DNA of 51,438 bases from the sequence record PZ754631.1. One strand, 5' to 3'. The DNA comes from a phage. Below the pieces are notes generated by a model, which was not told where the DNA came from, ran no database searches, and saw nothing but the letters and a program-made list of their open reading frames with translations. This document shows positions 1 to 51,438 of this stretch, one piece after another. Position 1 is the first letter of the stretch; each line of letters begins with the position of its first letter. Both the position numbers and the translations under genes were made by a program.

Positions 1-522
1 ATGGCTAAAAACGTTGAGCCAGCAGTAAAGGCTTGCAATTTTAAAAAACTATATAATAAGCAATATGGCGATATTGCAAAAATGACAAAGGCGCACAAGT
101 ACACGCCGGAACAGGTATTTGATCTGGCTGTACGTTACTTTACGTGGGCGGAGGAAAACCATATACAGGCTGCGGAAACGGCATCCTTTCAGGGTGACGT
201 ATACGAAAGCAAGATTCACAAGCCGCGAGTGTTCACCTTAAACGGATTCCGATTATTCGCTGGCCTTTCTGCTTCCGTACTTGAAAAATGGCGACGTGAG
301 CCAGGATTCAGCGAGGTTATGGACTTTATCGACGGCGTTGTTTACGAGCAAAAATTCCAGCTTGCCGCAAACAATATTGTTAACGCCGGATTCATTGGTA
401 AAGAGATCGGCATTGAAAAGCCAGCTACCGTTACCATTGAGAATAACACAAGCGCCAGCGTTGACGCTGTAACGGCGGAGGAAGTCAAAGAGGCGGTAAT
501 TGACATTCTGGAGAAGATATAA
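1..522 (+). CDS. terS: terminase small subunit
   Basis: 173 aa directly upstream of and overlapping (ATAATG) the large terminase; HTH-like N-terminal region; RBS AGGAGG lies at the window end, implying circular closure. Confidence 0.6.
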   Translation: MAKNVEPAVKACNFKKLYNKQYGDIAKMTKAHKYTPEQVFDLAVRYFTWAEENHIQAAETASFQGDVYESKIHKPRVFTLNGFRLFAGLSASVLEKWRREPGFSEVMDFIDGVVYEQKFQLAANNIVNAGFIGKEIGIEKPATVTIENNTSASVDAVTAEEVKEAVIDILEKI

Positions 523-2090
523 TGCTGATTTGGGAAGACTTAACAGCGGCGCAAAAACGCGCCATTAAGGAAATGAGCGAATATTCATTCGAAAAGATGA
601 TCCGCATTTGGTTTCAACTTCTCCAGGGGCAAAGGTTCTTAGGAAACTGGCATTTCAGTTACCTATGCAGCGAAGTTGAAAAAATAATCAAAGGCGAGTC
701 ACAGAACGTAATTTTCAACATAACGCCAGGCAGTGGTAAAACAGAGATATTCTCGATCCACATGTCACCTTATGCGTCATTGAAAAGTAAGAAGGTGAGA
801 AATCTTAATTTGTCGTTTAGTGATGGCCTTGTACAGCAGAATAGCAACCGCATCAAAGAGATTATTGGTTCTCCAGAGTGGCAGGAGCTATGGCCTGGAA
901 AGCTGGCAAAGGCGAGCGCAAAGGATTTGATTGTAACCGATGGCGGCAAGGTTAAATTACAAGTTAACTCGCGCTCTATCGGAGGTCAGGTTACTGGTCT
1001 GCGTGGCGGCTACATGGACGATGGTTTTACTGGTATGTTGGTTCTTGATGATCCAGACAAGCCGGATGACATGCTTTCTAAGGTGAAGCGCGAAGCCGGA
1101 CACATGCGCCTAAAGAACACGGTGCGATCGCGTCGAATGAAGGACACCACGCCAATCGTAATGGTCCAGCAACGGCTACACGTCAATGATTCAACATGGT
1201 TCATGACAAACGGCGGCATGGGCGGCATCCAGTTTAAGGTGGTTAGTATTCCTGCGCTCGTTACTAAGGAATATCGCGAAACGCTTCCTGACTGGTTAAA
1301 GCCTGAGTTTGATCGCGATGTTTTGTCCAGTAAGCCGGTGATGATTGATGGTGTTGCTCATTATTCGTTCTGGCCTGCTAAGGAAAGCGCGGAGGAATTA
1401 CTTGCACTTCGAAATGCTGATCCGTACACATTCGCTAGTCAGTATCAGCAACAGCCTGTTGCGCTTGGCGGTAACGTGTTTAAAACAGAGTGGTTTCAGT
1501 ATTACGGCAGCAGCGAGAAATGCACGCTACCAAAACCGGATCGCTTTGAATATACATTTATCACTGTTGATACCGCACAGAAAACAGGGGAGCTTAACGA
1601 CTACTCAGTGATCTGTTATTGGGGGATGTATAAAGATCGTGTCTACTTCATTGATGGCGTTCGCGGAAAATGGGAAGCACCGGACCTTGAGACGAATTTT
1701 GTTGCATTCGTTAATCAGTGCTGGAAGCGCAATAAAGAATGCGGAACGTTGCGAAGGATTCATGTTGAAGATAAGTCATCTGGCACTGGCTTGATTCAGA
1801 GTGCAGCGAAAAAAATCATGATCAAGATCAATCCCGTTCAGCGCGATAAAGACAAGGTTACTCGCGCAATGGACGCAGCGCCAGTAATGCGCGCCGGACG
1901 CGTAGCACTTCCAGAATCACATCCTATGCTGGCTGAGATACTAGCTGAAGTTGCGGCGTTTACATTCGATGATAGCCATCCTCATGATGATATTGTTGAT
2001 AACATCATTGATGCGGTTAACATTGAAATGAACATGGCAGATGATCCGGTTGGAAGAATGAAAAAATTGGCAGGTTTGCGGAACAAATAG
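522..2090 (+). CDS. terL: terminase large subunit
   Basis: 522 aa; Walker A-like PGSGKT and Walker B-like VLDDPD ATPase motifs, C-terminal nuclease-like region; position before portal. Confidence 0.85.
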   Translation: MLIWEDLTAAQKRAIKEMSEYSFEKMIRIWFQLLQGQRFLGNWHFSYLCSEVEKIIKGESQNVIFNITPGSGKTEIFSIHMSPYASLKSKKVRNLNLSFSDGLVQQNSNRIKEIIGSPEWQELWPGKLAKASAKDLIVTDGGKVKLQVNSRSIGGQVTGLRGGYMDDGFTGMLVLDDPDKPDDMLSKVKREAGHMRLKNTVRSRRMKDTTPIVMVQQRLHVNDSTWFMTNGGMGGIQFKVVSIPALVTKEYRETLPDWLKPEFDRDVLSSKPVMIDGVAHYSFWPAKESAEELLALRNADPYTFASQYQQQPVALGGNVFKTEWFQYYGSSEKCTLPKPDRFEYTFITVDTAQKTGELNDYSVICYWGMYKDRVYFIDGVRGKWEAPDLETNFVAFVNQCWKRNKECGTLRRIHVEDKSSGTGLIQSAAKKIMIKINPVQRDKDKVTRAMDAAPVMRAGRVALPESHPMLAEILAEVAAFTFDDSHPHDDIVDNIIDAVNIEMNMADDPVGRMKKLAGLRNK

Positions 2091-2120
2091 CACGAATCGA
2101 CAAACCAATATATAATCAAA

Positions 2121-2146: not shown

Positions 2147-2158
2147 GGAGGAAAGATA

Positions 2159-4203: not shown

Positions 4204-4206
4204 TTA

Positions 4207-5319: not shown

Positions 5320-5331
5320 GGAGAAATAAAC

Positions 5332-5844: not shown

Positions 5845-5851
5845 TAAATAT

Positions 5852-5876
5852 GGCGCTCACTGAGCGCCTTTTTTAT
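5852..5876 (+). terminator. intrinsic terminator
   Basis: GGCGCTCA/TGAGCGCC stem plus TTTTTT. Confidence 0.6.
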
Positions 5877-5889
5877 ATTTGGAGTTATC

Positions 5890-6324: not shown

Positions 6325-6407
6325 CACAAAATTATGTTGCACGTTTAACAAAAAATGCTATCATTGGGGCGTTACATACTAACGGCCTTTATATATGGAG
6401 GAAGAAA

Positions 6408-7382
6408 ATGGAAAAAGAAAAATTTGATCAGCTAGATGCGGATATTGTTTCTAGCTATCTAGCTACTCGCGGCGTTAAGGGTGATGCTTCTGATATGGGT
6501 ATCTGGACGGCGCAAGAGCTTCACAAGATCCGCTCAACTGCTTACGAGAAAGAGTATCCGGCAGGTTCGGCACTTCGTGTGTTCCCTGTAACTAATGAGC
6601 TTTCTGATACTGATAAAACTTTTGAATACCAGATGTTTGATAAAGTTGGTTACGCAAAAATTATTGCTGATTACACCGACGATCTGCCGACCGTTGACGC
6701 GCTGATGTCTAGCGAATTTGGTAAAGTGTTCCGCTTGGGTAACGCGTTCTTGATCTCCATTGACGAAATCAAGGCTGGTCAGCGTACTGGTAAGAGCCTT
6801 TCCACTCGCAAGGCAAACGCAGCGCAAAACGCTCATGATCAGGAAGTTAACCGCCTGGTGTTTAAGGGTTCAAAGCCGCATAAGATTCTTTCGGTGTTTG
6901 AACACCCTAACCTGACAAAGATCGTGTCAACTGGCTGGTTAAGTGCTGATGAAAACACTAAGTTCCCGCAGGCAGCATCTGATGAACTGGAAAAGGCTAT
7001 TGAAACCATTCAGACCATCACCAATGGTCAGCACCGAGCAACCAACATCCTGATTCCGCCGTCTATGCGCAAGGTTCTTTCCGTTCGAATGGAAAACACC
7101 ACTGAAAGTTATCTGGAATACTTCCAGAAACAAAACAGCGGAATCACCATTGACTCAATCGCAGAGCTTGAGGATATTGATGGCGCAGGAACGAAAGGTT
7201 GCCTGGTATATGAGAAAGACCCGATGAACATGTCGATCGAAATTCCAGAAGCATTTAACATGCTTCCTGCGCAACCAAAAGATCTGCATTTCAAAGTTCC
7301 GTGTACTTCAAAATGTACTGGCCTGACGATTTACCGTCCGTTTACGCTAGTGCTTATTACTGGCTTGAAAAAATCAGGTTAA
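6408..7382 (+). CDS. major capsid protein
   Basis: 324 aa; strong RBS GGAGG; flanked by intrinsic terminators (hallmark of highly expressed capsid gene); position in head module. Confidence 0.8.
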   Translation: MEKEKFDQLDADIVSSYLATRGVKGDASDMGIWTAQELHKIRSTAYEKEYPAGSALRVFPVTNELSDTDKTFEYQMFDKVGYAKIIADYTDDLPTVDALMSSEFGKVFRLGNAFLISIDEIKAGQRTGKSLSTRKANAAQNAHDQEVNRLVFKGSKPHKILSVFEHPNLTKIVSTGWLSADENTKFPQAASDELEKAIETIQTITNGQHRATNILIPPSMRKVLSVRMENTTESYLEYFQKQNSGITIDSIAELEDIDGAGTKGCLVYEKDPMNMSIEIPEAFNMLPAQPKDLHFKVPCTSKCTGLTIYRPFTLVLITGLKKSG

Positions 7383-7395
7383 TCGTATAACATTG

Positions 7396-7425
7396 GGGAA
7401 TCCTTAACTGGATTCCCTTTTTTAT
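7396..7425 (+). terminator. intrinsic terminator after major capsid gene
   Basis: GGGAATCC-loop-GGATTCCC stem plus TTTTTT. Confidence 0.65.
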
Positions 7426-7438
7426 TGGAGGTTATGAA

Positions 7439-7711
7439 ATGGCTAAAGAAAAAACTGTAACGCTAAAGGTTTCCGGCGTGTGCCTTATCATTGTTGATGG
7501 TGAGCATTATCATCCAGGCAAAGAGTTTGACGTAGAAGAATCAAAATTGAAAACAAGCGCGTTTGAATATCTAATTGCAAAAGGCGATCTGGAGGTTAAA
7601 GACAACTCCGCATTGAACGAAGAAATCAAACAGAGCGCAGCAAGCAAACGTAAAAAAGATCCGCGAGAGGGCAAGAGCAAAGCCGAACTTGAAGACGGCG
7701 GCATCTATTAA
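7439..7711 (+). CDS. hypothetical head-module protein
   Basis: 90 aa ORF with RBS GGAGG between two hairpin terminators. Confidence 0.5.
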
Positions 7712-7758
7712 TAAAGAGGGCGCTTATAGCGCCCTTTGTCATATCTGGAGGAAACACA

Positions 7759-8175
7759 ATGGTTGATGAATTTTTCACTGACGCAGAAATCACGCAGCAA
7801 ATCGTGAAATTAGCTCCACCGATGAAACAGATTGATCCAGATTTAATGGTGGCATGGATTGATCTGGCAAAGGAATTTGTTTGCAAGAAGCGGTTTAAAG
7901 AATCATATCCCAAAGCGGTTGCTCTTTATACGTTGCACCTTATGACGCTTGACGGAGCCATGAAGCAAGAGGGGGAAAGCGTAGAAAGTTACTCGCGGCG
8001 AGTTGCGTCATTTTCCCTGACTGGTGAATTTAGCCAGACATTTGATCGCGTGTCCGGCGATTCAAGCGGAAAAGAGATTAGACAAACTCCGTGGGGCAAA
8101 ATGTATGAGACGTTAAATAGAAAAAAAGGCGGTGGATTTGGCCTTGTGACTGGATTTCGGAGGCGCTGCAAATGA
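7759..8175 (+). CDS. head-tail connector/adaptor-like protein
   Basis: 138 aa; position between capsid and neck genes; RBS GGAGG. Confidence 0.45.
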
Positions 8176-8543
8176 ACTATAACGAGATCGCAAGAATGGC
8201 AACCGAAGGAATTAACTTCTTTAGTGATGGCAACGGTGAGTTTAAGTGCATAACGCAGCGTGGAAGCGTTGAAATCATCGGAGGCGAAGAAGTAGAAAAG
8301 CCAGAGATTAGTGTAATGATTAATGGTTTAATTAGATCACCCAAAGTCCGAGAGGTTGACGGCGAGACAATACGAGTAACCGATAAGTTGGGAGTTTTTA
8401 ACAATAAAGTTGAAATTAAGAACGGGTATCATATTGATGTTGATGGTGAATTATATGTTGTAGTTGAAGCAAGACCAATCAGGCAAACCAATGTCACTGT
8501 TGCTTATCGGCCTATTTTGAGAAGGATTTCTGTACATGGCTAA
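8172..8543 (+). CDS. head-tail joining (neck) protein
   Basis: 123 aa; translationally coupled (ATGA overlap) to neighbours in neck module. Confidence 0.45.
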
Positions 8544-8979
8544 AAACTACACGATAAGGGAATTTCACGGCAACATTGATGCGTGGATAAACGCCATTGA
8601 TAATGGCCTGAAAGATTGCGTTGAGTTGTTCGCCGAAAAAGTGCATACAGATCTTGTTAAGCGTTCTCCGGTTGATACTGGGCGTTACCGTGCAAACTGG
8701 CAGGTAACAGCAAACAAGCCGCCATTGTATGCGCTTAACCAGTACGATAAGCACGGAGACAAAACGATCGCGGAAGGCAAGCGCGCCATATACGCGATTT
8801 TACGAGGTGGCGGCGCAGTAAGAGCCATTTATTTTTCTAACATGCTTATTTATGCTAACGCGCTTGAGTACGGTCATTCAAAACAAGCGCCAGCGGGTGT
8901 GCTTGGTATTGTTGCCGTGAAATTGCGTTCATATATGGCTGAGGCAATAAAAGAGTCGAGGGCAAAAAATGCACTATGA
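8536..8979 (+). CDS. HK97 gp10-like neck/tail component
   Basis: 147 aa; contains SPVDTGRYRANW resembling the HK97 gp10 family signature. Confidence 0.6.
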   Translation: MAKNYTIREFHGNIDAWINAIDNGLKDCVELFAEKVHTDLVKRSPVDTGRYRANWQVTANKPPLYALNQYDKHGDKTIAEGKRAIYAILRGGGAVRAIYFSNMLIYANALEYGHSKQAPAGVLGIVAVKLRSYMAEAIKESRAKNAL

Positions 8980-9367
8980 ATTAATGCTATCGGCGCGTAA
9001 GGCGCTGGCGACTGAATACGAAAGCAGATTCATGATCGCTTATGAAAACGTAGAGTTTACGCCACCTGGTGACGGTTCGCCGTGGTTGAAGTTTGACTAT
9101 TCCGAAGTTGACACAGAATACTTGTCATTAGATCGCAAATGCGTTTCTTATATCGGAATGATTCAGGTTGGCATTGTGTTTCCACCAGGTTACGGAACTG
9201 ACAGGCCGCGCGTTCTCGCTAAAGAGATTGCGAAATTCTTTTACGATGGTAAAATGTTGGAGCATGGTTATATATATGAGGGTGCAAGAGTTCACAAGCC
9301 GCTCAAGAGTGAAAGCGGTTGGATTCTCCCAATAAGGTTTTATGTTCGAATTGAAACAAAGGAGTAA
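8969..9367 (+). CDS. tail completion / tail terminator-like protein
   Basis: 132 aa immediately upstream of major tail protein; overlapping start. Confidence 0.4.
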   Translation: MHYELMLSARKALATEYESRFMIAYENVEFTPPGDGSPWLKFDYSEVDTEYLSLDRKCVSYIGMIQVGIVFPPGYGTDRPRVLAKEIAKFFYDGKMLEHGYIYEGARVHKPLKSESGWILPIRFYVRIETKE

Positions 9368-9372
9368 AAATT

Positions 9373-10035
9373 ATGCATTTACCAAATGGATCGCAAATTT
9401 TCGTTGAGAGCAATCGAGACAGCGAAATCCAAGCAACAGCAGTGTCAAACGCCAAAGATCCTGTTTTCACTGTTGCATCTGGCGGCGCTGCGTACAAGAA
9501 AGGTGATTATGTGATCATCACTGCGTCTTCTTGGGGTAAGCTGATTGATCGTGTTATGCGTGTAAAGGCTAACGGTGAAGAAACAAGCGTAACGCTTGAG
9601 GGCGTTGATACGTCTGATACTAACGCGTTCCCTACTGGCGGCACAGCGTCTTTTGCAAAAATCAGCGCATGGACTGAGATCCCTTGCATTCAGGATTTGT
9701 CGCAGGAAGGAGGCGAACAGCAATACTATACTTATCAGTGTTTGGCAGACGACCAGGAACAGCAGTTACCTACCTATACGAGCGCCGTTTCTCTGACCTA
9801 CACTTTTGCGCACGAATACGATAACGCGATCTATCCGTTACTTCGTACAGCAGATGAATCAAACGCTGTAACAGCGCTTCGCATGTATATACCAAAAGCA
9901 AAAGAGATGCGTTGCTGGGCTGGTGTCCTTTCGTTTAACGAAATCCCGCAGACCACAGTTAACGAAATGGAAACTGTTTCCCTGTCTGTATCCCTGAAAG
10001 GTCGATTCACCTTTCTACCTTCTCAAGTAGCATAA
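9373..10035 (+). CDS. major tail (tube) protein
   Basis: 220 aa; position before chaperone/frameshift pair; followed by strong intrinsic terminator. Confidence 0.75.
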   Translation: MHLPNGSQIFVESNRDSEIQATAVSNAKDPVFTVASGGAAYKKGDYVIITASSWGKLIDRVMRVKANGEETSVTLEGVDTSDTNAFPTGGTASFAKISAWTEIPCIQDLSQEGGEQQYYTYQCLADDQEQQLPTYTSAVSLTYTFAHEYDNAIYPLLRTADESNAVTALRMYIPKAKEMRCWAGVLSFNEIPQTTVNEMETVSLSVSLKGRFTFLPSQVA

Positions 10036-10040
10036 TCACA

Positions 10041-10064
10041 AGGGGCGTTGCGCCCCTTTTTTTG
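10041..10064 (+). terminator. intrinsic terminator after major tail gene
   Basis: AGGGGCG-TTG-CGCCCCT plus T7. Confidence 0.7.
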
Positions 10065-10134
10065 TTACTGTACAATCATGATACACGATTCATAATCAAT
10101 TCTTTTAACAAAAAGTGCTATCAAGGAGAAAGAA

Positions 10135-10452
10135 ATGTCAAAAATGAAATTGACGATTGGGCCGCTTCCTGACTTTAAATTACCAGTGAAATTTGCAATG
10201 CCTAACGGAGAAGATCAAACAATTATCTTCACAGTTCGCCACCGCAAAACAAGTGAGATTCACGAGCGCTACACGTCAGATACTCCAATGAGCGATGTTG
10301 AAATGATCACCTTCCTTGCTTCTGGTTGGAATCTTGATGATGAATTTAACGAAGAAAATATTAAACAGCTTCTTGATTACTACCCAGCAACAGCAATCGG
10401 ATTAACTAGCGCATACATGAAAGCGCTTGCTGGGCAGCGAGTAAAAAACTAA
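10135..10452 (+). CDS. tail assembly chaperone (lambda G-like)
   Basis: 105 aa; ends at stop directly after slippery heptamer AAAAAAC; position before tape measure. Confidence 0.8.
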   Translation: MSKMKLTIGPLPDFKLPVKFAMPNGEDQTIIFTVRHRKTSEIHERYTSDTPMSDVEMITFLASGWNLDDEFNEENIKQLLDYYPATAIGLTSAYMKALAGQRVKN

Positions 10453-10763
10453 AAAGGGCGGTTTACCTGTTTTATCAGAAACCGCCGACAGATGCAGAGC
10501 TTGAGGCTGTTGGCCTTACAAGGGCAGACTATGAAGGAGAAGATCCGCCAGAGGTTATATTTGATGAAAGCATGATGCAATCATGGGATATATTTTGCGC
10601 AATGCAAACGCAATGGAGATGTTCAGGCGGTGGCGCTTACGGATTTGATTATAATGTCTTGCCTATGCTTTTTGAGATTTACAAGGTTGAGGATCGCGAG
10701 ATGGCGCTAAACGACTTGCGAATCATGGAGCAAAAAGCACTTGAAATGATGCATTCAAAATAA
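10135..10763 (+). CDS. tail assembly chaperone -1 frameshift fusion (lambda G-T like)
   Basis: -1 frame is open from the slippery site at 10443-10449 through 10763 with no stop; downstream stem-loop. Confidence 0.7.
10443..10488 (+). other. programmed -1 ribosomal frameshift site: slippery A_AAA_AAC + stop + stem-loop
   Basis: heptamer AAAAAAC 10443-10449, in-frame TAA 10450-10452, 8-bp stem GGCGGTTT/AAACCGCC at ~10457-10486. Confidence 0.7.
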
Positions 10764-10785
10764 GCGCCTACGGGCGCTTTTTTAT
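10763..10785 (+). terminator. intrinsic terminator before tape measure gene
   Basis: AGCGCC-TACG-GGCGCT plus T-run. Confidence 0.6.
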
Positions 10786-10802
10786 TACCTGGAGGATTAA
10801 TA

Positions 10803-13475
10803 ATGTCAGAACAATACGCAGGCTTGACGCTTGGGGTTGATGTTTCTCAACTCAACAATGCTGTAAAGTCTTTGCAGCAATTCAAGAAGGCAAACGACGA
10901 CGCAAAGGGAAGCGTTGAGAGTTTTGTTGATTCAGAGGTTGTTGCAAGACAAAGAGCCAAACAACTGGCTGAGGAATTGGCAAAGCAGAAGCAAGAATTT
11001 AAAGCAATTCAGTCGGCAATAGATCCGACAGCAAGCAAAATGGATAAGTTGCGCCAGGCTGCGACACAGCTTGATGCGCTTTGGAAAAAAGGAATTGTGC
11101 CGGATGATACATTCTTTGAGTTAGGATCAATTCTTGAGACGCAGCAAAATAAACTGATCGCAACTAAGAAGGCGTTAACTGAAGAAGGCCGCGCGGCGCT
11201 TGAGGAAGCAAAAAATAAGGCAAGGGCAGAGGCTGAGGCAAGAAAGTTCATTGCGGCATTGCAGGCGCAAGCTGACGCAGCGGAAAAAACAAAATCAGAG
11301 CTTGTCGAAATGAGAGCCGCACAACTTGGAGTTAGTGCAGAGGCAGCGCCATTTATTGCAAAAATGAAGGAGCAGGAAAAACAAGCCTCAAAACTTGGCG
11401 TTTCTATGGGGCAGTACAAGCAAGCAATGGCACAATTGCCAATGCAGATCACTGACGTTGTTACTTCTCTTGCTTCAGGTATGCCAGTATGGATGATCGC
11501 AATCCAGCAGGGTGGGCAAATCAAGGACTCATTCGGCGGTGTTGCTAATACGTTTAAAGCGCTAATGACATTTGTCACGCCTTTAAGTGTAGGAATGACG
11601 GCGCTGACTGGTGCTCTTGGTTATGCTGCATATAATGCATACAAAGCAAATGCACAATTGAAGGAGATCACAAAAACCGTTCAGGAGGCAACAGGTCTTT
11701 CCGGTGAGTTTGCAGAGCGGATCGCAACTGGAATCCAGGCGCTATCTGACAAGACAGGAGAGAGCGCAGACAATATCGCAAAGGCTTATATAAGCACTAA
11801 GGATGGAGCAAGCGAGGCTATACAAAAACTCGTCGATGTTGGATTTACCTATGACGAAGCAAAGGCAAAAGTAAACGAATACAAAAACGCATCAAGTTTT
11901 GTAAGTCTTAACAATGAAATTGCTGATCATAAAAACAAAGTTCTTGAGCTTGGCGATTCATGGTATGCGGTCTTAAAAGCAAAACGTGATTATGCTTCAC
12001 CGTCCGGCGGGCTGTTGGGGAAAGAACTTGGTTATGTGAATCCAATGCTGCAATTTGCGAAGAACACCTATGAGGATATAAGGAAGATCGTAAAAGATGC
12101 GAATAAGGATATGGCGGAACGAGCAGCACGCATCGACAGAGAAAACCTTTCCTTAAACAGAGTTCGAGCGGCGCAAGAGGCTTTAAACAAAGCCATAGAG
12201 GATCAGAAGAACGTAGCAAGGACAGCAGACGAAGAGTTGAAAAAACGAGCGGCTGAGAACGTGGAGTTCAGGCGAAAAGAGCTTGAAGAGGCGAAGAAGG
12301 CGCAGCAGCAAAAGGAAAAAGTTGGTGGAGTTGTAAAAGCACCAACAGAGCAGCTTGATAAGGAGCTATATGTTCTCAAAGCGCAACTTGAAACACTAAA
12401 AGAGCACCGAACTGTAAATGATGTTATTTCACGCCAGAGGCAATCTTTGTGGAGCATTGAAAAGCAGATCCAGATCCTGGAGGAAGCGCAAAGCAAACGC
12501 AAGCTGACAAAGGCTGAACAGGCGTTACTAAACGAGCAAAAAACAGTTATTGCTATGGCAAAAGAAAAGGCCGAGATAGGCGATCAGATTGTTTTGCAAC
12601 AGAGAAAGAACAAGCAATACCAGGAAGGGCTAAAGTTCATTCAGCAAACTTCAGATGCCATTGATGCTATGAACTTGCGACAGTCTGGAGCTACAGATCT
12701 GCAAATCCAGCGAGAGCTTGAGTTGAAGAAGTTGCGAACTGATTATGTTGCTGGCGGCGGTAGTATCGACGATGAAATTTATCAGCAGATGGAAGCAAAG
12801 CTGAAGGAGTATTACGCCACTGAGGATCAGCTTAGAAATAACTGGATTGCAGGAGCAAAAAACGCATGGGAGGTTTACGGACAAGATGCAATGGATATGT
12901 ACGGCAACGTGCAAGATATTGCAAGCGAGGCGCTCAGCGGTCTAACCAACCAAATGGCTACATTCCTTGCAACAGGAAAGGCAAACTTTAAGAGCTTCGC
13001 AACGTCAATCATCCAAATGATTATCCAGATGATCACGAAGATGGTTATCTTTAATGCCATATCTGGTGCGATTGGAGGTGACACTTGGACGATTGGAAGC
13101 CTTCTTAAAAATGTTGGATTTGCAACTGGTGGATACACTGGCGACGGCGGGAAGTATGAGCCAGCAGGTGTTGTCCATAAAGGCGAGTTTGTCATGACGA
13201 AGGAGGCAACGAAGCGGATCGGAGTTGGAAATCTTTACAAAATGATGCGCGGTTATGCAAATGGCGGCGTTGTTGGCGGCACTTCATACACTGGCGGCGG
13301 AGTTTCATCTGGAGCAACAAATCTTAATATTGGCGGGATCAGCGTTGATATTAACAACGGAAACGATCCGAAAGGATTGGAGACTGGCGTAAAAATGATT
13401 TTCACTGATATGATTAAGCGTTCCTGTACGCAGGGTGGGGAAGTTTACGAATTTGTTATGTCTAAGCGGGGGTGA
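10803..13475 (+). CDS. tape measure protein
   Basis: 890 aa, long coiled-coil-rich ORF downstream of G/GT chaperones; Gly-rich C-terminal segment. Confidence 0.85.
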
Positions 13476-13531
13476 TAGTGAAACTTGAGCAATTCAAATG
13501 GTGTACGCAAACGCAAGGAGGCGGCGGCACT

Positions 13532-13828
13532 ATGACCACATCAAATAACGACAGGGAAATCTCATTTGGTAATGGTTACACGCAGGTTGCGTCAGGAGGG
13601 TTTAACACGGTACGCAGGGAGTTTTCCATTGTCTATGTTGGCAAGGATTACAGAAACGTTGTTGACTTCCTGAATGGACACAGGCTGAAGCCGTTTTTAT
13701 GGTTTATGCCTGACGGTCAACCTGGTCTATTCAGGGTAAAATCTGGTAGCGTTGGATTAACTCCAATATCAGCAACCGTTCAGGAAGTGAAAGCAACATT
13801 TACTGAGCAATTTACATCGATGCAATAA
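13532..13828 (+). CDS. minor tail protein (lambda M-like)
   Basis: start moved to ATG with RBS AAGGAGG (track GTG start at 13472 rejected); position after tape measure. Confidence 0.6.
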   Translation: MTTSNNDREISFGNGYTQVASGGFNTVRREFSIVYVGKDYRNVVDFLNGHRLKPFLWFMPDGQPGLFRVKSGSVGLTPISATVQEVKATFTEQFTSMQ

Positions 13829-13832
13829 TTCA

Positions 13833-13857
13833 AGCCGCCTTTGTGCGGCTTTTTTAT
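13833..13857 (+). terminator. intrinsic terminator
   Basis: AGCCGC-loop-GCGGCT plus T-run. Confidence 0.6.
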
Positions 13858-13889
13858 TGATGATACAATGCACGAAAGGAGGTGCAATT

Positions 13890-14651
13890 ATGGCTAATGA
13901 AACAACAGGTCGCGCGGATCTTGAAAATTGTCTGCAAAGCCTTTACCCTGGCGAGATTATCACGCTAATTGAGATTGACGGCACAAAGTTTGGCGCAAAC
14001 ATTTACCGCATACACAATGAGAACATCTCATACACTGCGGAAGAATTGTTGCAGGCGCGAGAAACTGGAGTTCTTCCGCCGAAAGAGATTACATTCCGTG
14101 GTGAGGTTTACGGCGCGCGCCCGTTCGGAATATCTGGAATCAACTTCACAAGCAACGGAAAGGCTGATAAGCCACAATTGATACTATCAAACCTTGACAG
14201 CCAGGTGAGCGCGATGATTCGCAACTTTAACGGCATGATGCAAGCTAAGGTTACAATCTGGATCACGCCAGCGGAATTAATGGGTAAAGATGGCAACATT
14301 AAAGATGGAGCCTCAAGAAAGCTGGTTTACTACATTGAGCGCCCAAGCCATTACAATAGGATGATGGCAAAATTTGATCTGACATCGCCTTATGATATGG
14401 ATGGAATAATGATTCCTCCGCGAATAACTCAAAGCGTTTGTTATTGGGCGCAGCGTGGATGGTATCGAAGCGGAAAAGGTTGCGGATACAATGGATCGCG
14501 AATGTTTGACAAAGACAACAATCCTGTAACCGATCCATCTCAAGACTTTTGCGCCGGAACTGTAACAGCGTGCAAACTTCGTTTTGGTGCAGATAAGCAG
14601 CTTGATTTTGGCGGCGCACCAGTAGCAAGCCTGTTAAGGAGAAATCAGTGA
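13890..14651 (+). CDS. minor tail protein (lambda L-like)
   Basis: 253 aa; start at ATG with RBS AGGAGG; C-terminal Cys pairs; position. Confidence 0.65.
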   Translation: MANETTGRADLENCLQSLYPGEIITLIEIDGTKFGANIYRIHNENISYTAEELLQARETGVLPPKEITFRGEVYGARPFGISGINFTSNGKADKPQLILSNLDSQVSAMIRNFNGMMQAKVTIWITPAELMGKDGNIKDGASRKLVYYIERPSHYNRMMAKFDLTSPYDMDGIMIPPRITQSVCYWAQRGWYRSGKGCGYNGSRMFDKDNNPVTDPSQDFCAGTVTACKLRFGADKQLDFGGAPVASLLRRNQ

Positions 14652-15382
14652 TGATTAGTGCAAAGATAAAACTTGAAATAATGCAGCACGTAAAAGATGA
14701 ATACCCGCGCGAGGCGTGCGGGGTTATCACTCAAAAGTCGCGGGTACAGAAATATCACCGCATAACAAACGTGCATGATGATCCTGAAAATCATTTTGAG
14801 ATGGGCGCAACTGAATACGTTGAGGCGTGTGAAAGCGGTGAGCTTATTGCTGTTGTGCATAGCCACACAGGAGACGGGGCAAGTACAATTCCAAGCGCCC
14901 ATGACACATGCATGTGTGATGAAATGGGTGTTTCATGGGTTATTGTGTCATGGCCCGAAGGTGATATGAGAATAATTGAGCCTGAATCTCGTCCTCTGAT
15001 TGGTCGCCCGTGGTCGCTTGGGGCGTATGATTGCTGGGGGCTTATTATGGCATGGCACAAGCAACATGGCGTTATCCTGAATGATTTCAGGAAACCATAT
15101 GAATGGTGGAAGCCTGAGCACGGCGAAAATCTTTACCAGGAAAATTATCTGAAAGAGGGTTTTGTTGAAACAGGAGAGCCGCCAAAACCTGGTGATATGG
15201 TTATCTTTCAGCTTTCCGCGCCAGTGTGGAATCATGCAGGCATTTATCTTGGAAACAATCAGTTGCTTCATCATGCCTTTGGCAAGTTGTCAAGGGTTGA
15301 TTTGTATTCTGGATGGTATCAGGAACATGCAAAAATGGTTTGTAGACATAAGGATCTGAAATATGACTTTGAAGGTAATTAA
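14651..15382 (+). CDS. tail assembly protein (lambda K-like; JAB/MPN + NlpC/P60)
   Basis: JAMM-like motif HSHTGDGAS..D and a Cys/His peptidase-like C-terminal half; TGATG coupling to upstream gene. Confidence 0.7.
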   Translation: MISAKIKLEIMQHVKDEYPREACGVITQKSRVQKYHRITNVHDDPENHFEMGATEYVEACESGELIAVVHSHTGDGASTIPSAHDTCMCDEMGVSWVIVSWPEGDMRIIEPESRPLIGRPWSLGAYDCWGLIMAWHKQHGVILNDFRKPYEWWKPEHGENLYQENYLKEGFVETGEPPKPGDMVIFQLSAPVWNHAGIYLGNNQLLHHAFGKLSRVDLYSGWYQEHAKMVCRHKDLKYDFEGN

Positions 15383-15959
15383 ATTATCTGGATCTTTAGG
15401 CCGAAGATTTGGAGTATTTCATAAGCTGGCTGTTGATTCATACCCCGAAGCAATACGCGCACTATCTTCGCAGGTGGAAGGATTCAAGGACTACATGCAA
15501 AGCGAAGTAGGATCGCGAATGCGTTACGCTGTATTTGTTGACGGTAATAATGTAGGGCAGCACGATGAAAAAGCGTGGCAATGTGCAAAGGAAGTGAGGA
15601 TTATTCCAATCCCAACAGGTTCAAAGTCTGGCGGGTTGTTTCAGGTTGTTCTTGGCGCGGTTATTATGGCGACTGCATTTTTCACTGGCGGCTCTTCACT
15701 TGCTTTGATGGGCGCTTTTGCATCTTCTGCCTTCATGATGGGTGGAGCAATGGTACTTGGCGGAGTAATGCAAATGATCTCACCGCAGCAAGGAGGATCA
15801 AGATTGTCATCCCAATCAGCAGAAAACAAGCCGTCTTATGCTTTCGGTGGCGCTGTTAACACAACGGCAGCAGGATACCCAATACCATTGCCATATGGTC
15901 AAAGGACCGTCGGCGGAGCTATCTGGTCGGCTGGCAGCTATGCAGAGGATAAGGCTTAA
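15363..15959 (+). CDS. tail assembly protein (lambda I-like)
   Basis: 198 aa with hydrophobic Gly/Ala-rich C-terminal half; position between K-like and J-like genes. Confidence 0.6.
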   Translation: MTLKVIKLSGSLGRRFGVFHKLAVDSYPEAIRALSSQVEGFKDYMQSEVGSRMRYAVFVDGNNVGQHDEKAWQCAKEVRIIPIPTGSKSGGLFQVVLGAVIMATAFFTGGSSLALMGAFASSAFMMGGAMVLGGVMQMISPQQGGSRLSSQSAENKPSYAFGGAVNTTAAGYPIPLPYGQRTVGGAIWSAGSYAEDKA

Positions 15960-15967
15960 TATAAAAG

Positions 15968-15994
15968 AGTCGCGCGTTGCGCGGCTTTTTTTTT
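15968..15994 (+). terminator. intrinsic terminator before J-like gene
   Basis: 8-bp GC stem plus T9; TATAAT box follows at ~16000. Confidence 0.65.
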
Positions 15995-16039
15995 GCCCGT
16001 ATAATTCAACAAATCAAATAGCACAAAAGGTGAAAAAGC

Positions 16040-19000
16040 ATGGCTGAAAATATGATAACGGGCAGTAAGGGTGGATCATCAAAACCTTATGTGCCGAAAG
16101 AGATGGAAGATAACCTGATCTCAATCAACAAAATCAAAATCCTTCTTGCCGTTTCCGATGGTGAGTGCGATCCATATTTCACGCTTCGCGATCTGTATCT
16201 CGATGATGTTCCGGTAATTGCAGATGATGGAACTGTTAACTATCAGGGTGTGAAAGCTGAATTTCGACCTGGAACGCAGACGCAAGATTACATCCAGGGG
16301 TTTACTGACACATCAAGCGAAGTGACGCTGGCGCGTGACATTACTACATCAAATCCTTATGTAATTTCTGTAACCAACAAAACATTGTCGGCTATCAGAA
16401 TAAAAATGCTAATGCCAACAGGCATTAAGCAAGAGGATAACGGCGATCTTGTAGGTGTTAAGGTCACTTATGCTGTTGATATGGCTGTTGACGGAGACTC
16501 TTACAAAGAAGTATTGCGAGACACCATCGAAGGTAAAACACGTTCAGGTTACGACAGAAGCCGAAGGATTGACCTTCCGGCATTTAATGATCGTGTATTA
16601 CTTAGGGTTAGAAGGGTTACGGCAGACAGCGCATCTTCTCGCGTTACTGATCTGATTAAGCTACAAAGTTACGCTGAGGTTATTGATGCAAAATTCCGTT
16701 ATCCTCTGACTGGTCTTGTATACGTTGAATTTGACAGTGAGTTGTTCCCTAACCAGATCCCTAACATTTCAATCAAGAAGAAATGGAAGTTGATTAATGT
16801 TCCGAGCAATTACGATCCGGTAATGCGAGAGTATCACGGTTCATGGAATGGTACGTTCAAGAAAGCGTGGTCGAACAATCCGGCGTGGGTACTTTATGAC
16901 ATTATCACAAACCAGCGATACGGATTAGATCAGCGAGAACTTGGTGTGCAGGTTGACAAATGGAGTCTTTACGAAGCGGCGCAATACTGCGATCAGAAAG
17001 TACCGGACGGAAAAGGCGGCACAGAGCCGCGTTATCTATGTGATGTTGTTATTCAGAGTCAGATTGAGGCTTATCAGCTTATTCGTGACATTTGCTCTAT
17101 CTTCCGTGGAATGAGCTTTTGGAATGGCGAGAGCTTGTCAATCGTTATTGATAAGCCGCGCGATCCGTCGTACATCTTCACCAATGACAACGTTGTTGAT
17201 GGTGATTTTCAGTACACAACAGCAAGCGAAAAGAGCATGTACACGCAGTGCAACGTGACGTTTGACGACGAACAAAACATGTATCAACAGGACGTAGAGG
17301 GCGTATTCGACACAGAGGCCGCATTGCGCTTTGGATACAATCCGACAAGCATAACAGCGATCGGATGTACACGCAGGAGTGAGGCTAATCGGCGCGGTCG
17401 ATGGATACTAAAAACCAACTTGCGCAGCACTACGGTAAACTTTGCTACTGGACTGGAAGGCATGATCCCATCAATAGGTGATGTGATTGCTATTGCTGAC
17501 AACTTTCACAGCAGCAACCTGAAGTTAAACCTATCAGGGCGCGTGATGGAAGTTTCCGGCTTACAGGTATTCGTTCCGTTTAAGATTGATGCTAGACCAG
17601 GTGATTTCATTATCATCAACAAGCCGGACGGAAAGCCAGTTAAGCGCACAATCTCAAAAGTAAGCGGTGACGGAAAAACCATTGAGCTAAACATCGGGTT
17701 TGGATTTGAAGTTAAACCGGACACGGTTTTTGCAATCGACCGCGCCGATATTGCTTTGCAGCAATACGTTGTAACGAGTATCGGCAAAGGTGATGATGAT
17801 GATGAATTTACATACTCCATCACGGCTGTTGAATATGACCCGAACAAATACGACGAGATTGATTATGGAGTAAACATTGACGACAGGCCAACCTCAATTG
17901 TCCAGCCTGACACAATGGCAGCGCCTGAAAATGTGCAAATATCCTCATACTCGCGAATTGTCCAGGGTGCAAGCGTTGAAACAATGGTTGTGTCGTGGGA
18001 TAAAGTACCTTACGCATCGCTGTATGAAATGCAATGGCGAAAAGGTGATGGCAACTGGCTGAATACACCACAGACTGCAAACAAAGAAATTGAGGTTGAA
18101 GGTATTTATTCAGGAAACTACCAGGTAAGGGTTAGATCTGTTTCCGCTTCAGGTTCTACGTCTCCGTGGTCCAGAATTGTGACAGCATCACTGACTGGTA
18201 AGGTGGGAGAGCCAGGCGCGCCAGTTAACTTAACCGCATCCGACAATGAAGTGTTTGGCATTCGTGTTAAGTGGGGGATGCCAGAAGGGAGCGGAGATAC
18301 GGCATACATTGAGCTTCATCAGTCGCCGGATGGAACGGCTGAAAACTCAAGCCTGCTAACGCTGATCCCGTATCCACAATATGAATACTGGCACGGTACG
18401 CTTCCGGCTGGTCATGTTGTCTGGTATAGAATCCGCAGCGTTGACAGAATCGGCAACGTTTCCGGCTGGACTGATTTTGTTAGAGGCATGGCTTCAGATG
18501 ATGTGGAGGCTGTTTTAGGTGATATTCTTGATAAGATTTTTGATACAGAAGCAGGCAAGGATCTGAAAGAGAACGCCATTGACAGTGCAAACAAGATAAA
18601 GGACCAGGCGCAAGCAATCATCCAGAATGCCCTTGCTAATGATGCTGATATTAAGTGGACGCGAGTACAAAACGGAAAGAGAAAGGCTGAATATGGTCAC
18701 GCTCTTGAGCTTATAGCCACAGAGACTGAGGCGCGAGTGACGCAGATTGAAGAGTTGAGGGCGTCAATCGACGAGGATATTGTTTCAAGCATAAAGACAG
18801 TGCAGGAGGCTATCGCCACAGAATCTGAAACGCGAGCAACTCAAATAAATGCTTTGGATTCAAAATTTACAACTGAAATTGACGGCGTAAAACGCAATAC
18901 AGCAGCAAGCATTAATCAGGTGAATCAAACCATTGCTAATGAGTCAGAAGCGCGCGCGCAGGCCGTTAACGCTCTTGATGCGAAGTTCACAAAGGAGATC

Positions 19001-19618
19001 GAAGATTTAAATGGAGTTATTAAGACTGAGGTTGAGGCTAACATCTCTGAAGTGAAACAGGCTATCGCTAACGAGACAGAGGCAAGGGTGCAGGCTGACC
19101 AGGCGTTAACAGCTAAGTTTGGAGACGTTGAATCTGCATTGTCGCAAAAACTTGATTCATGGGCTGGTGTGTCTTCTGTTGGTGCTAAATACTCAATGAA
19201 ACTTGGGTTAACTTACAACGGGCAGAAGTACAGCGCAGGAATGGTAATGCAGCTTTCGCAGAGTTCATCCGGCCTTATCTCGCAAATCTTGTTTGACGCG
19301 AACAGGTTCGCGATCATGACAAGTTCGACTGGCGGAACGTTTACTTTGCCTTTTGTTGTTGAAAACAACCAAGTTTTCATTAATAGCCTGTTAGTTAAAA
19401 ACGGTTCAATCACAAATGCTATGATCGGTAATTATATTCAGTCGAATAACTTTGTTGCCAATCAGCAGGGTTGGAGGCTGGATAAAAGCGGAAGATTTGA
19501 GAACTACGGTTCTACATCTGGAGAAGGGGCCATGAAGTTGACAAATGAAACGATAAGTGTACGAGACGCAAACGGGCGCTTGCGTGTTCAGATTGGTAGG
19601 CTTACTGGTACGTGGTAA
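16040..19618 (+). CDS. tail tip host-specificity protein (lambda J-like)
   Basis: 1192 aa; size and position; FN3-like central segments; preceded by terminator and -10 box. Confidence 0.8.
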   Translation: MAENMITGSKGGSSKPYVPKEMEDNLISINKIKILLAVSDGECDPYFTLRDLYLDDVPVIADDGTVNYQGVKAEFRPGTQTQDYIQGFTDTSSEVTLARDITTSNPYVISVTNKTLSAIRIKMLMPTGIKQEDNGDLVGVKVTYAVDMAVDGDSYKEVLRDTIEGKTRSGYDRSRRIDLPAFNDRVLLRVRRVTADSASSRVTDLIKLQSYAEVIDAKFRYPLTGLVYVEFDSELFPNQIPNISIKKKWKLINVPSNYDPVMREYHGSWNGTFKKAWSNNPAWVLYDIITNQRYGLDQRELGVQVDKWSLYEAAQYCDQKVPDGKGGTEPRYLCDVVIQSQIEAYQLIRDICSIFRGMSFWNGESLSIVIDKPRDPSYIFTNDNVVDGDFQYTTASEKSMYTQCNVTFDDEQNMYQQDVEGVFDTEAALRFGYNPTSITAIGCTRRSEANRRGRWILKTNLRSTTVNFATGLEGMIPSIGDVIAIADNFHSSNLKLNLSGRVMEVSGLQVFVPFKIDARPGDFIIINKPDGKPVKRTISKVSGDGKTIELNIGFGFEVKPDTVFAIDRADIALQQYVVTSIGKGDDDDEFTYSITAVEYDPNKYDEIDYGVNIDDRPTSIVQPDTMAAPENVQISSYSRIVQGASVETMVVSWDKVPYASLYEMQWRKGDGNWLNTPQTANKEIEVEGIYSGNYQVRVRSVSASGSTSPWSRIVTASLTGKVGEPGAPVNLTASDNEVFGIRVKWGMPEGSGDTAYIELHQSPDGTAENSSLLTLIPYPQYEYWHGTLPAGHVVWYRIRSVDRIGNVSGWTDFVRGMASDDVEAVLGDILDKIFDTEAGKDLKENAIDSANKIKDQAQAIIQNALANDADIKWTRVQNGKRKAEYGHALELIATETEARVTQIEELRASIDEDIVSSIKTVQEAIATESETRATQINALDSKFTTEIDGVKRNTAASINQVNQTIANESEARAQAVNALDAKFTKEIEDLNGVIKTEVEANISEVKQAIANETEARVQADQALTAKFGDVESALSQKLDSWAGVSSVGAKYSMKLGLTYNGQKYSAGMVMQLSQSSSGLISQILFDANRFAIMTSSTGGTFTLPFVVENNQVFINSLLVKNGSITNAMIGNYIQSNNFVANQQGWRLDKSGRFENYGSTSGEGAMKLTNETISVRDANGRLRVQIGRLTGTW

Positions 19619-19661
19619 AATCAAAGCGGGGCATTTGCCCCGCATTTATGGAGGTTTAATA

Positions 19662-19967
19662 ATGGCTGAATATGGTGTTTCAACGTGGGATGCTAACGGG
19701 AAGTATAACAACTACGGAATCAAGCCAGTTTCCGTTGTTGGTGTCATTAGCCTTGCGGCTGGTCAGACAAGCGGATCGTGGAGCTTTAGCATTCCAAGTG
19801 GTTTTAAGGTTGGGTATGTTGTTTCGCTTGATGAGGGTGCTAGAGGGGTTGGAAGGGAAATAGTAGCATCTGGAAACACAATAAGAATCAGTCCTACATC
19901 TTCAGTTGGTGCAAATAGATATTCTTCTTCAAAGTGTGAGTTAGTTGTTTTTCTTGAGAGGGCTTAA
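19662..19967 (+). CDS. hypothetical protein, MAEYG paralog 1 (tail-tip-associated?)
   Basis: RBS GGAGG; starts MAEYGVSTWDANGKY; shares YG..WDA(N/S)GK module with next gene. Confidence 0.55.
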   Translation: MAEYGVSTWDANGKYNNYGIKPVSVVGVISLAAGQTSGSWSFSIPSGFKVGYVVSLDEGARGVGREIVASGNTIRISPTSSVGANRYSSSKCELVVFLERA

Positions 19968-19968
19968 A

Positions 19969-20610
19969 ATGGCTGAATATGGAGCAATGTTATCTTTATC
20001 AAATGGGAATCCATTTATCACACCAAAATCAACGCCATTTTGCTTATATGGCAAGTACACTTATTCATCTTCTGGCACTTCTGCCTATCATAGCGCAAGC
20101 GCAAATATACCATTGAATCAATCTTATCCATGTATGGCATTTATAAAAACAACAAACACACAGCAGCCAACTGCATTAATAGCTTACAGGAATGGTGGCA
20201 ACATTTATGTAAACGGAGGCAATCCATACGGGCAATCATTTACAATGACTGTTTATATATTTGCCATATTCCCTCAAACTCTACCCAAATATGGTATGGC
20301 TATATGGGATGCAAGCGGCAAGTTGGTTTTAACTAATGAAAGCAGGGTGCTAACAGATCTTGTTACAATTGGTACTCCTGGTTCTTCAGGTGGAACGAAT
20401 ATAGATCAAACGTTATCTGGTTCTTATGCCGTTTGCCCTTCAAGGCTTGGTGCGGTTGTAGGCATGGGTGCTTCTGATATATACACATCATGCAGGTATA
20501 ATGGTTCAAGCACAAGGATAGGTGCAGCAAGGACAACGCCAGGAACAGGATCTATAACAAATAACGGAAATTCAATAATTGCAATAAAGACTGATATTTA
20601 CGACCAATGA
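19969..20610 (+). CDS. hypothetical protein, MAEYG paralog 2 (tail-tip-associated?)
   Basis: starts MAEYGAML; contains second copy of module (KYGMAIWDASGK); Ser/Gly/Thr-rich; followed by bidirectional terminator. Confidence 0.55.
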   Translation: MAEYGAMLSLSNGNPFITPKSTPFCLYGKYTYSSSGTSAYHSASANIPLNQSYPCMAFIKTTNTQQPTALIAYRNGGNIYVNGGNPYGQSFTMTVYIFAIFPQTLPKYGMAIWDASGKLVLTNESRVLTDLVTIGTPGSSGGTNIDQTLSGSYAVCPSRLGAVVGMGASDIYTSCRYNGSSTRIGAARTTPGTGSITNNGNSIIAIKTDIYDQ

Positions 20611-42024: not shown

Positions 42025-42249
42025 TCATTCGCGATCACCTGGATTGTGAGACTTTGAGTTTGGTCAATTTTAATCAAGTGATTAACTTTTTGTGTGGAGG
42101 GGATAGAGAAACGCGGTCCTCTTGCATCCTTTCCGGCATTCCTGGCGCGCAACATGTTCATTATGTTTCCAGCCGTTCACGCAAATAAGCCTCCGCAGTT
42201 CTTCTACGTTTCATGCCGTCATGCACACAAAAGAAACAAAGTAAAATCT

Positions 42250-42325
42250 ATATAAATACACATTAAATCAATAAGTTAGTTATATATGTATTTATATTTG
42301 TTTCTTATTGTTCTTGTTGTGTGAT
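42250..42325 (+). repeat. ~75 bp AT-rich element with IHF-consensus core, copy 2
   Basis: same 16-mer at 42265-42280 and ~80% identity over flanks to copy 1, same orientation. Confidence 0.6.
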
Positions 42326-42569
42326 GGTTATTGGTATATGTTGCGATTTTTGTTTTGGTGGATATTGATTGTTTATTGTTCGATTTGGTTGGTGATCATG
42401 ATTGCTCATGGTCGCGTATGATTCTTGATGTATTTATGTATATATCCGCGAAAATTCGTGAACAGCCACACAGCCAAAAAACATGACGAGGATTCTTTTA
42501 AAATCATGCGCTTAAGTGTGAATTTTGTTTCCGCGCAATCTCCACACGTATAGCAAACAATTAGAACGC

Positions 42570-42599
42570 TTGACATAGACACGACGCGGTGGCAACATT
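42570..42599 (+). promoter_or_regulatory. candidate rightward early promoter (consensus -35)
   Basis: perfect TTGACA followed 17-18 bp later by weak AACATT; ~40 nt upstream of gene 42638. Confidence 0.35.
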
Positions 42600-42637
42600 G
42601 CAATCACCAACAAACAAGGCAAATAGGAGTTACACTC

Positions 42638-43096
42638 ATGACTATGACAAGTAAAGAATTTTGCGATATGTTGCGAGTCAATGCAGCCTCACTAGCTAAC
42701 GGTGATGTTAGCGAACTGCAAATCAAGGAGCTTGACTTGCAATGTAATATTGCGCCGGAAGACTTGAGGAAAATTAACGCCTCATACATCAGAACGATTA
42801 TGAATCGAACGCCGGAGGTGAAGGCTGTTGGCGCGGTGAAGGTTGAACGCGTTCGAGGTGATGCGGATATTCCTGATTGTTATCGCGTAACCATTAACAA
42901 GAATCCAAAGCGCCGCTTGCTGACAGATGAAGAATTGCCAAAACTTGAAAGCAAGTGGCGAGCAAAGTTTATTGCTCAACTGCTTAAAACACAGCCGCGA
43001 ATCAGCGATCTGGAAGGTGAGCGCCTGGAAGGTGCAGCAATCGCACTTGAGCGAATGAATGAAATGCTTAACGAGATGGTAAAGATGGAGGATTAA
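42638..43096 (+). CDS. hypothetical protein (first gene of rightward early arm)
   Basis: 152 aa; RBS AGGAG; downstream of consensus TTGACA box. Confidence 0.55.
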   Translation: MTMTSKEFCDMLRVNAASLANGDVSELQIKELDLQCNIAPEDLRKINASYIRTIMNRTPEVKAVGAVKVERVRGDADIPDCYRVTINKNPKRRLLTDEELPKLESKWRAKFIAQLLKTQPRISDLEGERLEGAAIALERMNEMLNEMVKMED

Positions 43097-50980: not shown

Positions 50981-51122
50981 TTGCTCGTCATGCAAACAAA
51001 GTTTTGAATGTGAGGTTGAAGCGCGCGGAGAGCTTGAGGCAGCAGCAAGAGCAAAAGAGTTGTCCGGCGCTAATCAAGACACTCACCAGTTTTCAATAGA
51101 TCTTGTAAGGAAAATGTCATGA
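50937..51122 (+). CDS. hypothetical Cys-containing protein
   Basis: 61 aa; overlaps upstream gene by 44 nt; ATGA coupling to downstream gene; start uncertain. Confidence 0.35.
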   Translation: MMYKVRLTIRRMGRNCSSCKQSFECEVEARGELEAAARAKELSGANQDTHQFSIDLVRKMS

Positions 51123-51358
51123 GTTCTGTAATTATTGGTTTGGTTGCTTTAATCATTGGTGTTCTAATCGGCTTTGTTGCTGTATCTTTCGTGGTGGCTG
51201 TTGGTGTTCGCTATAAGTCAAAAAAGGGTGAATTTGCTTTAGCGTTTTGGGATGAAGATCAGAAAGTTTGGCAGGTTCGCGGTCACTACTTATCAATCGG
51301 TGGCAGGATTCACAGCACTATGAAGACAAATCCAGAAAAAGTAAAATACAAGTATTGA
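51119..51358 (+). CDS. small membrane protein
   Basis: 79 aa with N-terminal TM helix; followed by intrinsic terminator. Confidence 0.5.
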   Translation: MSSVIIGLVALIIGVLIGFVAVSFVVAVGVRYKSKKGEFALAFWDEDQKVWQVRGHYLSIGGRIHSTMKTNPEKVKYKY

Positions 51359-51366
51359 ACAACTAC

Positions 51367-51389
51367 CCGCCAAATGGCGGGTTTTTTAT
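51367..51389 (+). terminator. intrinsic terminator before the packaging genes (wraps to position 1)
   Basis: CCCGCC-AAAT-GGCGGG plus TTTTTT; TATAAT at 51406-51411 and RBS AGGAGG follow. Confidence 0.65.
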
Positions 51390-51438
51390 TGTCTGCAATT
51401 TGTCTATAATGAGTCTTTGTTATAAAGGAGGGCGCATT

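Follow-up and report, generated by a model that had tools for sequence, protein, structure and literature searches.

Elements at the two ends of the window

We analysed a phage DNA of 51,438 nucleotides (sequence record PZ754631.1), the whole of which is hereafter called the window and whose last gene and first genes are all read rightward. The elements found at its two ends are the following.

51119..51358, + strand: gene of 79 aa (DUF7299) that closes the rightward small-gene block, taken from the list of open reading frames and matched by Pfam PF23973 at 92.7 bits
51365..51388, + strand: intrinsic (rho-independent) terminator, with the stem ACCCGCC/GGCGGGT (51365-51382), the loop AAAT and a run of six T (51383-51388)
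51389..51404, + strand: spacer TTGTCTGCAATTTGTC, from the T-run to the -10, which holds the conserved box TG(Y)C(Y)G as well as a TG displaced by one base from the extended -10 register
51405..51410, + strand: TATAAT, the -10 hexamer of a predicted promoter for terS (late/packaging operon), placed as TAnnnT is in relatives
51424..51432, + strand: Shine-Dalgarno sequence (SD) AAAGGAGGG, 6 nt (CGCATT) before the end of the window, its AGGAG conserved in relatives
1..522, + strand: terS, small terminase subunit, 173 aa, P22 gp3-like (GP3_package PF16677, 37.2 bits, cut-off 29.4)
522..2090, + strand: terL, large terminase subunit (Terminase_6C), its start overlapping the terS stop; annotated in egaa, G29-2 and KarlJaspers
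2159-3439, + strand: portal gene (Pfam portal match), next after terL

The 79-aa gene, whose homologues are annotated as CDS in egaa, G29-2 and KarlJaspers, ends with the TGA codon 51356-51358, and the stem of the terminator lies 7 nt further on. The hairpin comprises seven pairs, six of them G-C, with a computed RNA folding energy of -13.8 kcal/mol (z = -2.5 relative to shuffled sequences), and it was also called by a terminator scan. We thus find the usual signature of an intrinsic terminator: beyond a stop codon, the transcribed strand carries a G+C-rich hairpin with a T-run directly behind it. An Rfam scan of the contiguous homologous region in a related contig (L006, described below) returned only sub-threshold terminator-like matches, for instance Trp_leader at 21 bits for a gathering score of 41, and no known RNA family. 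Downstream of the predicted promoter, terS transcription would start near 51416-51419. When the two ends are joined, the SD stands 6-7 nt and the -10 hexamer 28 nt from the ATG of terS, a gene annotated as such in egaa, G29-2 and KarlJaspers.

An initial annotation of the same DNA had reported a terminator at 51367-51389, a perfect TATAAT at 51406-51411 and a ribosome-binding site at the extreme 3' end. All three elements are present, although the terminator actually occupies 51365-51388, the hexamer is shifted by a single base to 51405-51410, and the ribosome-binding site is separated from the end by six nucleotides. Its reading of position 1 as the ATG of the small terminase is borne out by the match to PF16677 above the gathering score, and the spacing to that ATG is, as it had proposed, correct once the ends are joined.

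The terS upstream module in Drexlerviridae

The conservation of these elements was examined starting from a protein alignment of terS, which gave 80 loci in IMG/VR, from each of which we took the 110 nt preceding terS. The resulting sample consists of 66 distinct full-length upstream sequences from Drexlerviridae, with terS identities ranging from 49 to 100%. A hairpin abutting a run of five to eight T is present in all 66, with folding energies between -6.4 and -14.7 kcal/mol. Twenty combinations of stem and loop occur, always adjoining the T-run, and six perfectly complementary stems could be distinguished (CCCGC/GCGGG, CCCCGC/GCGGGG, CCCGCC/GGCGGG, GCCCTC/GAGGGC, CCGCC/GGCGG and CCGC/GCGG). 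Stems that differ and yet remain complementary represent compensatory changes, which argues that a real hairpin structure is maintained. A terminator is already annotated at the homologous place in G29-2 and in T1 (NC_005833).

The hexamer is equally constant in its position: in all 66 sequences, TAnnnT lies 8-17 nt after the T-run and 24-37 nt before the ATG, with an AGGAG-type SD. The variants are TATAAT (32 sequences), TATACT (18), TAAAAT (11) and TACAAT (4). The hexamer is preceded by TGn in 58 of the 66 sequences, including every one with an imperfect hexamer; re-reading one further locus (L049) by eye as TGATAAAAT brings these counts to 12 for TAAAAT and to 59/66 for TGn. Only two clades are devoid of an in-register TG, namely that of the window (TGTC-TATAAT) and that of phage TLS (TAGC-TATAAT), and both have the perfect hexamer.

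The same arrangement can be followed in T1 and TLS. The order of elements in T1 (small open reading frame, rho-independent terminator at 8322-8344, -10, SD, and terS at 8396) is that of the window, even though the T1 small terminase is only about 53% identical to its counterpart in the window. The T1 terS -10, TGGTAAAAT, is an extended -10 with an imperfect hexamer, unlike the perfect hexamer of the window. TLS (AY308796), which belongs like the window to the subfamily Tempevirinae, displays the same module of terminator, TATAAT, SD and terS. A family-wide terminator and -35-independent promoter in front of terS extends the annotations of T1 and G29-2, with nothing new in kind.

The class of this promoter deserves some precision. 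No -35 hexamer with at least four matches out of six was found 16-18 nt upstream of 51405-51410, the corresponding position being occupied by the T-run of the terminator (GTTTTT/TTTTTA), and a sigma-70 scan omits the terS promoter for want of a -35. Among the relatives, the shortest versions have their T-run and -10 just 8-10 nt apart, a distance too short to accommodate a -35. A canonical -35/-10 promoter was considered for terS and was not accepted, since the -35 is absent. The initial annotation had placed a promoter of the packaging genes at the far end of the window; its TATAAT is a conserved -10, and the site has neither a -35 nor an in-register TG. In the extended -10 promoters of E. 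coli sigma-70 (TGnTATAAT), TG lies one base upstream of the hexamer, whereas that of the window lies two bases upstream (TGTCTATAAT), so that TGn does not immediately precede the hexamer in TGTC-TATAAT. The likeness to the extended -10 class resides in the invariant T1, A2 and T6, in the lack of a usable -35 and in the TGn of most relatives. Judged by its sequence, the terS site of the window would work like a -10-only promoter, and strictly it is a member of neither the canonical nor the extended -10 class.

Statistics within the window were of no help in this respect. TATAAT occurs 23 times on both strands, for 29.9 occurrences expected from shuffles, and is not enriched; such counts were therefore rejected as evidence. 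The significance of the end module comes from the comparison with relatives. When up to three mismatches were allowed, the 25-nt promoter region had no copy in the window other than the site itself, which is not one of a repeated promoter family.

The comparison nonetheless argues that the terS promoter is probably functional: selection on a -35-independent sigma-70 extended -10 would keep positions 1, 2 and 6 invariant and leave positions 3-5 free, with TG and hexamer quality trading off against each other, as is seen here. In the mechanism that we propose, transcripts running rightward through the small genes (42.6-51.4 kb) would end at the hairpin and T-run of 51365-51388, and host RNA polymerase would re-initiate about 30 nt downstream at the -35-independent -10 (51405-51410). 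The resulting transcript, with an SD-containing leader of about 20 nt, would direct the synthesis of TerS, of TerL from the overlapping ATG at 522, then of the portal protein and so forth. The activities of both terminator and promoter are predictions from sequence, and a promoter of constitutive appearance is not enough to account for the late expression of the packaging genes.

The alternative that survives best accepts that the ends join and holds that TATAAT is not a working promoter, terS and terL being expressed by partial read-through of the terminator and the hexamer serving another purpose or being merely carried along. It draws on the window having neither a -35 nor an in-register TG, on the lack of enrichment of TATAAT, and on a literature search that found no mapping of transcription starts for any Drexlerviridae. 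We consider it unlikely, because TAnnnT occupies a constant place throughout the 66 distinct sequences although the bases around it vary, because variation of the hexamer is restricted to positions 3-5, and because the association of TGn with every imperfect hexamer, within the 58 sequences that carry it, is the pattern expected of a selected extended -10. Moreover, a strong conserved terminator would starve the operon unless transcription re-initiated, and the late region of T1, as far as the citation given in PMC11447400 goes, is made of terminator-flanked transcriptional modules with RpoD promoters.

Continuity across the record boundary

To follow the joined ends in other genomes, the last 700 and the first 700 nt of the window were combined into a junction query of 1400 nt, which was searched against a phage collection. 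This junction is contained as a single ungapped piece, at least 80% covered and with 91-99% identity, in 27 phage records. In Escherichia phage egaa, identity reaches 99.0% over the 1400 nt, and a longer alignment across the junction gives 95.9% over 4400 nt. An IMG/VR contig of 51,859 bp (L006) also spans the junction, with 97.9% identity over 3519 nt and no gap, and in another contig (L023) the 110-113 nt leading to the terS ATG are identical to the joined sequence of the window. Compared with these three independently assembled relatives, no base has been gained or lost at the junction. Its position varies from record to record (43.8 kb in egaa, 38.5 kb in phiE31-2, 10.9 kb in Henu8, 25 kb in pSf-1, 26.6 kb in herni and 2.5 kb in slyngel), a scatter that is expected if circular assemblies were opened at arbitrary points.

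The window itself belongs to a well-populated group. Over positions 1-20000, Hanrivervirus genomes (JLBYU09, Henu8, KarlJaspers, egaa and others) share 95-97% nucleotide identity with it and the same gene order; over the last 20 kb, relatives cover 84-88% of the window with about 94% identity. Similarity and synteny with pSf-1, egaa and KarlJaspers are those of a T1-like unit genome of Drexlerviridae/Hanrivervirus. The closest match in the searched collection is JLBYU09, with 97% over the first 20 kb, and no record there is identical to the window. Two Hanrivervirus records of the BASEL collection, KarlJaspers/Bas06 (MZ501090) and JakobBernoulli/Bas07 (MZ501079), are about 96% identical to the window in the structural half, and in both the ATG of terS is base 1, as in the window. 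The likeness to KarlJaspers extends to the other end: the record stops 80 nt after its last CDS, exactly as the window does, its tail carries the same terminator, TATAAT and AAAGGAGGGCGCATT, and its first and last bases align to the first and last bases of the window, respectively. According to the BASEL methods, genomes assembled as circles were opened so that the record begins with the first base of the small terminase gene. The boundary of the window corresponds to this stated convention, and its sister records open at the same base; the cause of the layout is a deposit convention and not a physical end.

We therefore read the window as the complete genome of a virulent T1-like siphovirus (Drexlerviridae, Tempevirinae, Hanrivervirus), assembled to unit length in circular form and reopened at the first base of terS, with a probability of about 90%. 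Opening at this base relegates the terminator, promoter and ribosome-binding site of terS to the far end of the sequence, and the cut separates the gene from its own 5' control region, so that the last 75 nt functionally belong to position 1. The proposal that the two ends form one regulatory unit is supported by a junction contiguous in 27 records and a module conserved in 66 distinct relatives. The closed or permuted genome suggested at the same time is likewise supported, by the contiguous junction and the terS-opening convention for the former term and by homology with relatives for the latter. "Closed" applies to the assembly only; by homology, the virion DNA would be linear, terminally redundant and partly permuted.

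According to a second alternative, the genome is linear and physically ends at the boundaries of the window, with cos ends or short direct terminal repeats, and promoter and ribosome-binding site lie near the other end by coincidence. The record is indeed linear, and six IMG/VR contigs (L022, L042, L052, L054, L070 and L098) likewise open 19-88 nt upstream of terS. The boundary of the window, however, falls exactly between the 6-nt SD spacer and the ATG, as the documented annotation convention requires. Between its two extremities there is no direct repeat of at least 5 bp, hence no signature of direct terminal repeats, and the junction is internal in relatives, being contiguous in the 27 records. 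The window encodes a small terminase of the P22 gp3 (pac) type, and the data on T1, TLS and Hanrivervirus point to a start of pac headful packaging about 9 kb upstream. Physical ends at the boundary are thus very improbable. The chance that the window is instead a fragment (an incomplete contig or a piece of prophage) that happens to start at terS is smaller still, since its 51,438 bp agree with the lengths of KarlJaspers (51,474), egaa (51,643) and pSf-1 (51,821), since both extremities of KarlJaspers align to its own, and since the junction has no missing or duplicated bases relative to egaa, L006 and L023.

For a linearised circular assembly, position 1 is an arbitrary opening point and the 5' control region of terS is to be looked for at 51365-51438; analyses of operons, promoters or repeats in the window need to treat it as circular. 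Overall, what the ends display is an annotation convention combined with the known boundary of a T1 "transcripton", and as such it is ordinary and already known. Each component is of a known kind, be it the circular assembly of a pac-headful phage linearised by convention, the intrinsic terminator or the sigma-70 -10/extended -10 promoter.

Two observations concern other records. The six contigs named above open within the promoter/terminator region, which reflects a similar, though not identical, opening convention used by other depositors; there too, the terS control region is split or truncated. Separately, about 21 records labelled "Campylobacter phage" (MG065636-MG065685, host C. jejuni) are 91-98% identical to Hanrivervirus across terS/terL and the replication half, and are probably T1-like contaminants or phages with mis-assigned hosts.

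Probable packaging start and a repeated element

If the boundary is a convention, the start of packaging should be sought elsewhere, near 42.1-42.6 kb, where we delineated one region.

42105..42637, no strand assigned: candidate pac or terminal-redundancy start, divergent, AT-rich, mostly non-coding and repeat-laden, located by synteny with the starts of the TLS and G29-2 records

This region, about 9 kb upstream of terS, separates the leftward gene block from the rightward one, and the first rightward open reading frame after it (42638-43096) is homologous to TLS gp01. Within it, 476 nt (42162-42637) are non-coding, AT-rich and T/G-rich, with imperfect inverted repeats of 40 nt (42224-42263 and 42284-42323), and make a candidate pac, early-promoter or origin region. 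The first approximately 590 nt of TLS are syntenic and partly alignable with 42.1-42.6 kb of the window. More precisely, TLS positions from about 60 to 590 and G29-2 positions 1-222 align to 42105-42640; the TLS alignment is weak at the exact pac site, and its reliable part stops just short of the TLS pac bases themselves (AGATTT at position 1). The leftward genes beside the region differ from those of TLS, the window having about 1.3 kb extra. Positions 1-1200 of T1 showed no meaningful nucleotide similarity to the window, and the mapping of the pac region onto the window therefore uses TLS and G29-2 only.

The known members of the family offer several points of reference. TLS DNA has been described as terminally redundant and packaged by the headful mechanism from pac, in three to four partly permuted variants, and its pac was assigned from restriction mapping and from its resemblance to that of P22 (PMC11447400); TLS is the only one of these phages in which the site has been experimentally mapped. 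In the TLS record (AY308796), the assigned pac AGATTT stands at the start, a HindIII site at 5876 and terS at 8792. The T1 record (NC_005833) carries a repeat_region at 1-2800 and terS at 8396-8920, which places the terminally redundant region about 8.4 kb upstream of terS; this record is numbered from the terminal repeat, while the window is numbered from terS. The pac of T1-like phages has been located in the untranslated region before the rightward small open reading frames (SU57 paper, PMC7718038), and the Hanrivervirus vB_EcoS-149_4M was typed as "Headful (pac)" by PhageTermVirome (PMC13507304). The paper on phage G29-2 holds no data on the termini of that phage. At the level of genes, the window has the pac-type arrangement of a P22 gp3-like small terminase adjoining the large terminase.

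Homology with T1, TLS and the PhageTerm-typed Hanrivervirus thus suggests where pac would lie in the phage of the window, and that its genome would be terminally redundant. Its virion DNA would be linear and partly circularly permuted, with headful packaging initiated at pac from about 42.1-42.6 kb. If packaging starts about 9 kb before terS, most virion molecules would contain the 51438/1 junction internally and not as a physical end.

The window further contains a repeated element, AAATAGCAC, found in nine exact copies for 0.61 expected. Every copy lies between genes or at a gene end, in the direction of local transcription.

2085, 16016, 32072, 43820, 45361 and 47995, + strand: exact copies of AAATAGCAC
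38907, 40825 and 41963, - strand: exact copies of AAATAGCAC

Seven of the nine copies are extended as AAATAGCAC-N4-TTG(T/C)TAAAA, followed after 19-21 nt by TATAAT, CATAAT or TACATT. The element corresponds to the 21-nt direct repeat reported for TLS, the function of which was left open there (PMC11447400), and from its sequence context it looks like the -35 or upstream half of a class of phage promoters. The terS promoter of the window clade is devoid of AAATAGCAC. In the T1 clade (L019, which is T1, at 8340-8396; L062-L072, L049 and L055), the terS -10 TGGTAAAAT overlaps AAATAGCAC-N4-TGTTAAAC, which lies between the -10 and the SD. The repeat being downstream and not upstream of the promoter in this clade suggests an operator or leader role there.

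One might picture the terS module of all sampled Drexlerviridae, with its strong terminator whose T-run takes the -35 position, its TG(Y)C(Y)G box and its -35-independent -10, not just as a passive end of an operon but as a switch point for late (packaging and structural) expression, at which the box, or in the T1 clade the overlapping AAATAGCAC, would bind a phage-encoded regulator of late timing; we regard this as a speculative and rather doubtful idea.

The gap between terL and the portal gene (2085-2158) contains in succession AAATAGCAC, TATAAT (2111-2116), a 10-bp terminator hairpin (2118-2140) with its T-run, an SD and the ATG. A transcript starting from this TATAAT would begin inside the 5' arm of the hairpin and would thus escape the terminator that stops transcripts arriving from upstream. 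A terminator is annotated between terL and the portal gene in both G29-2 and T1.
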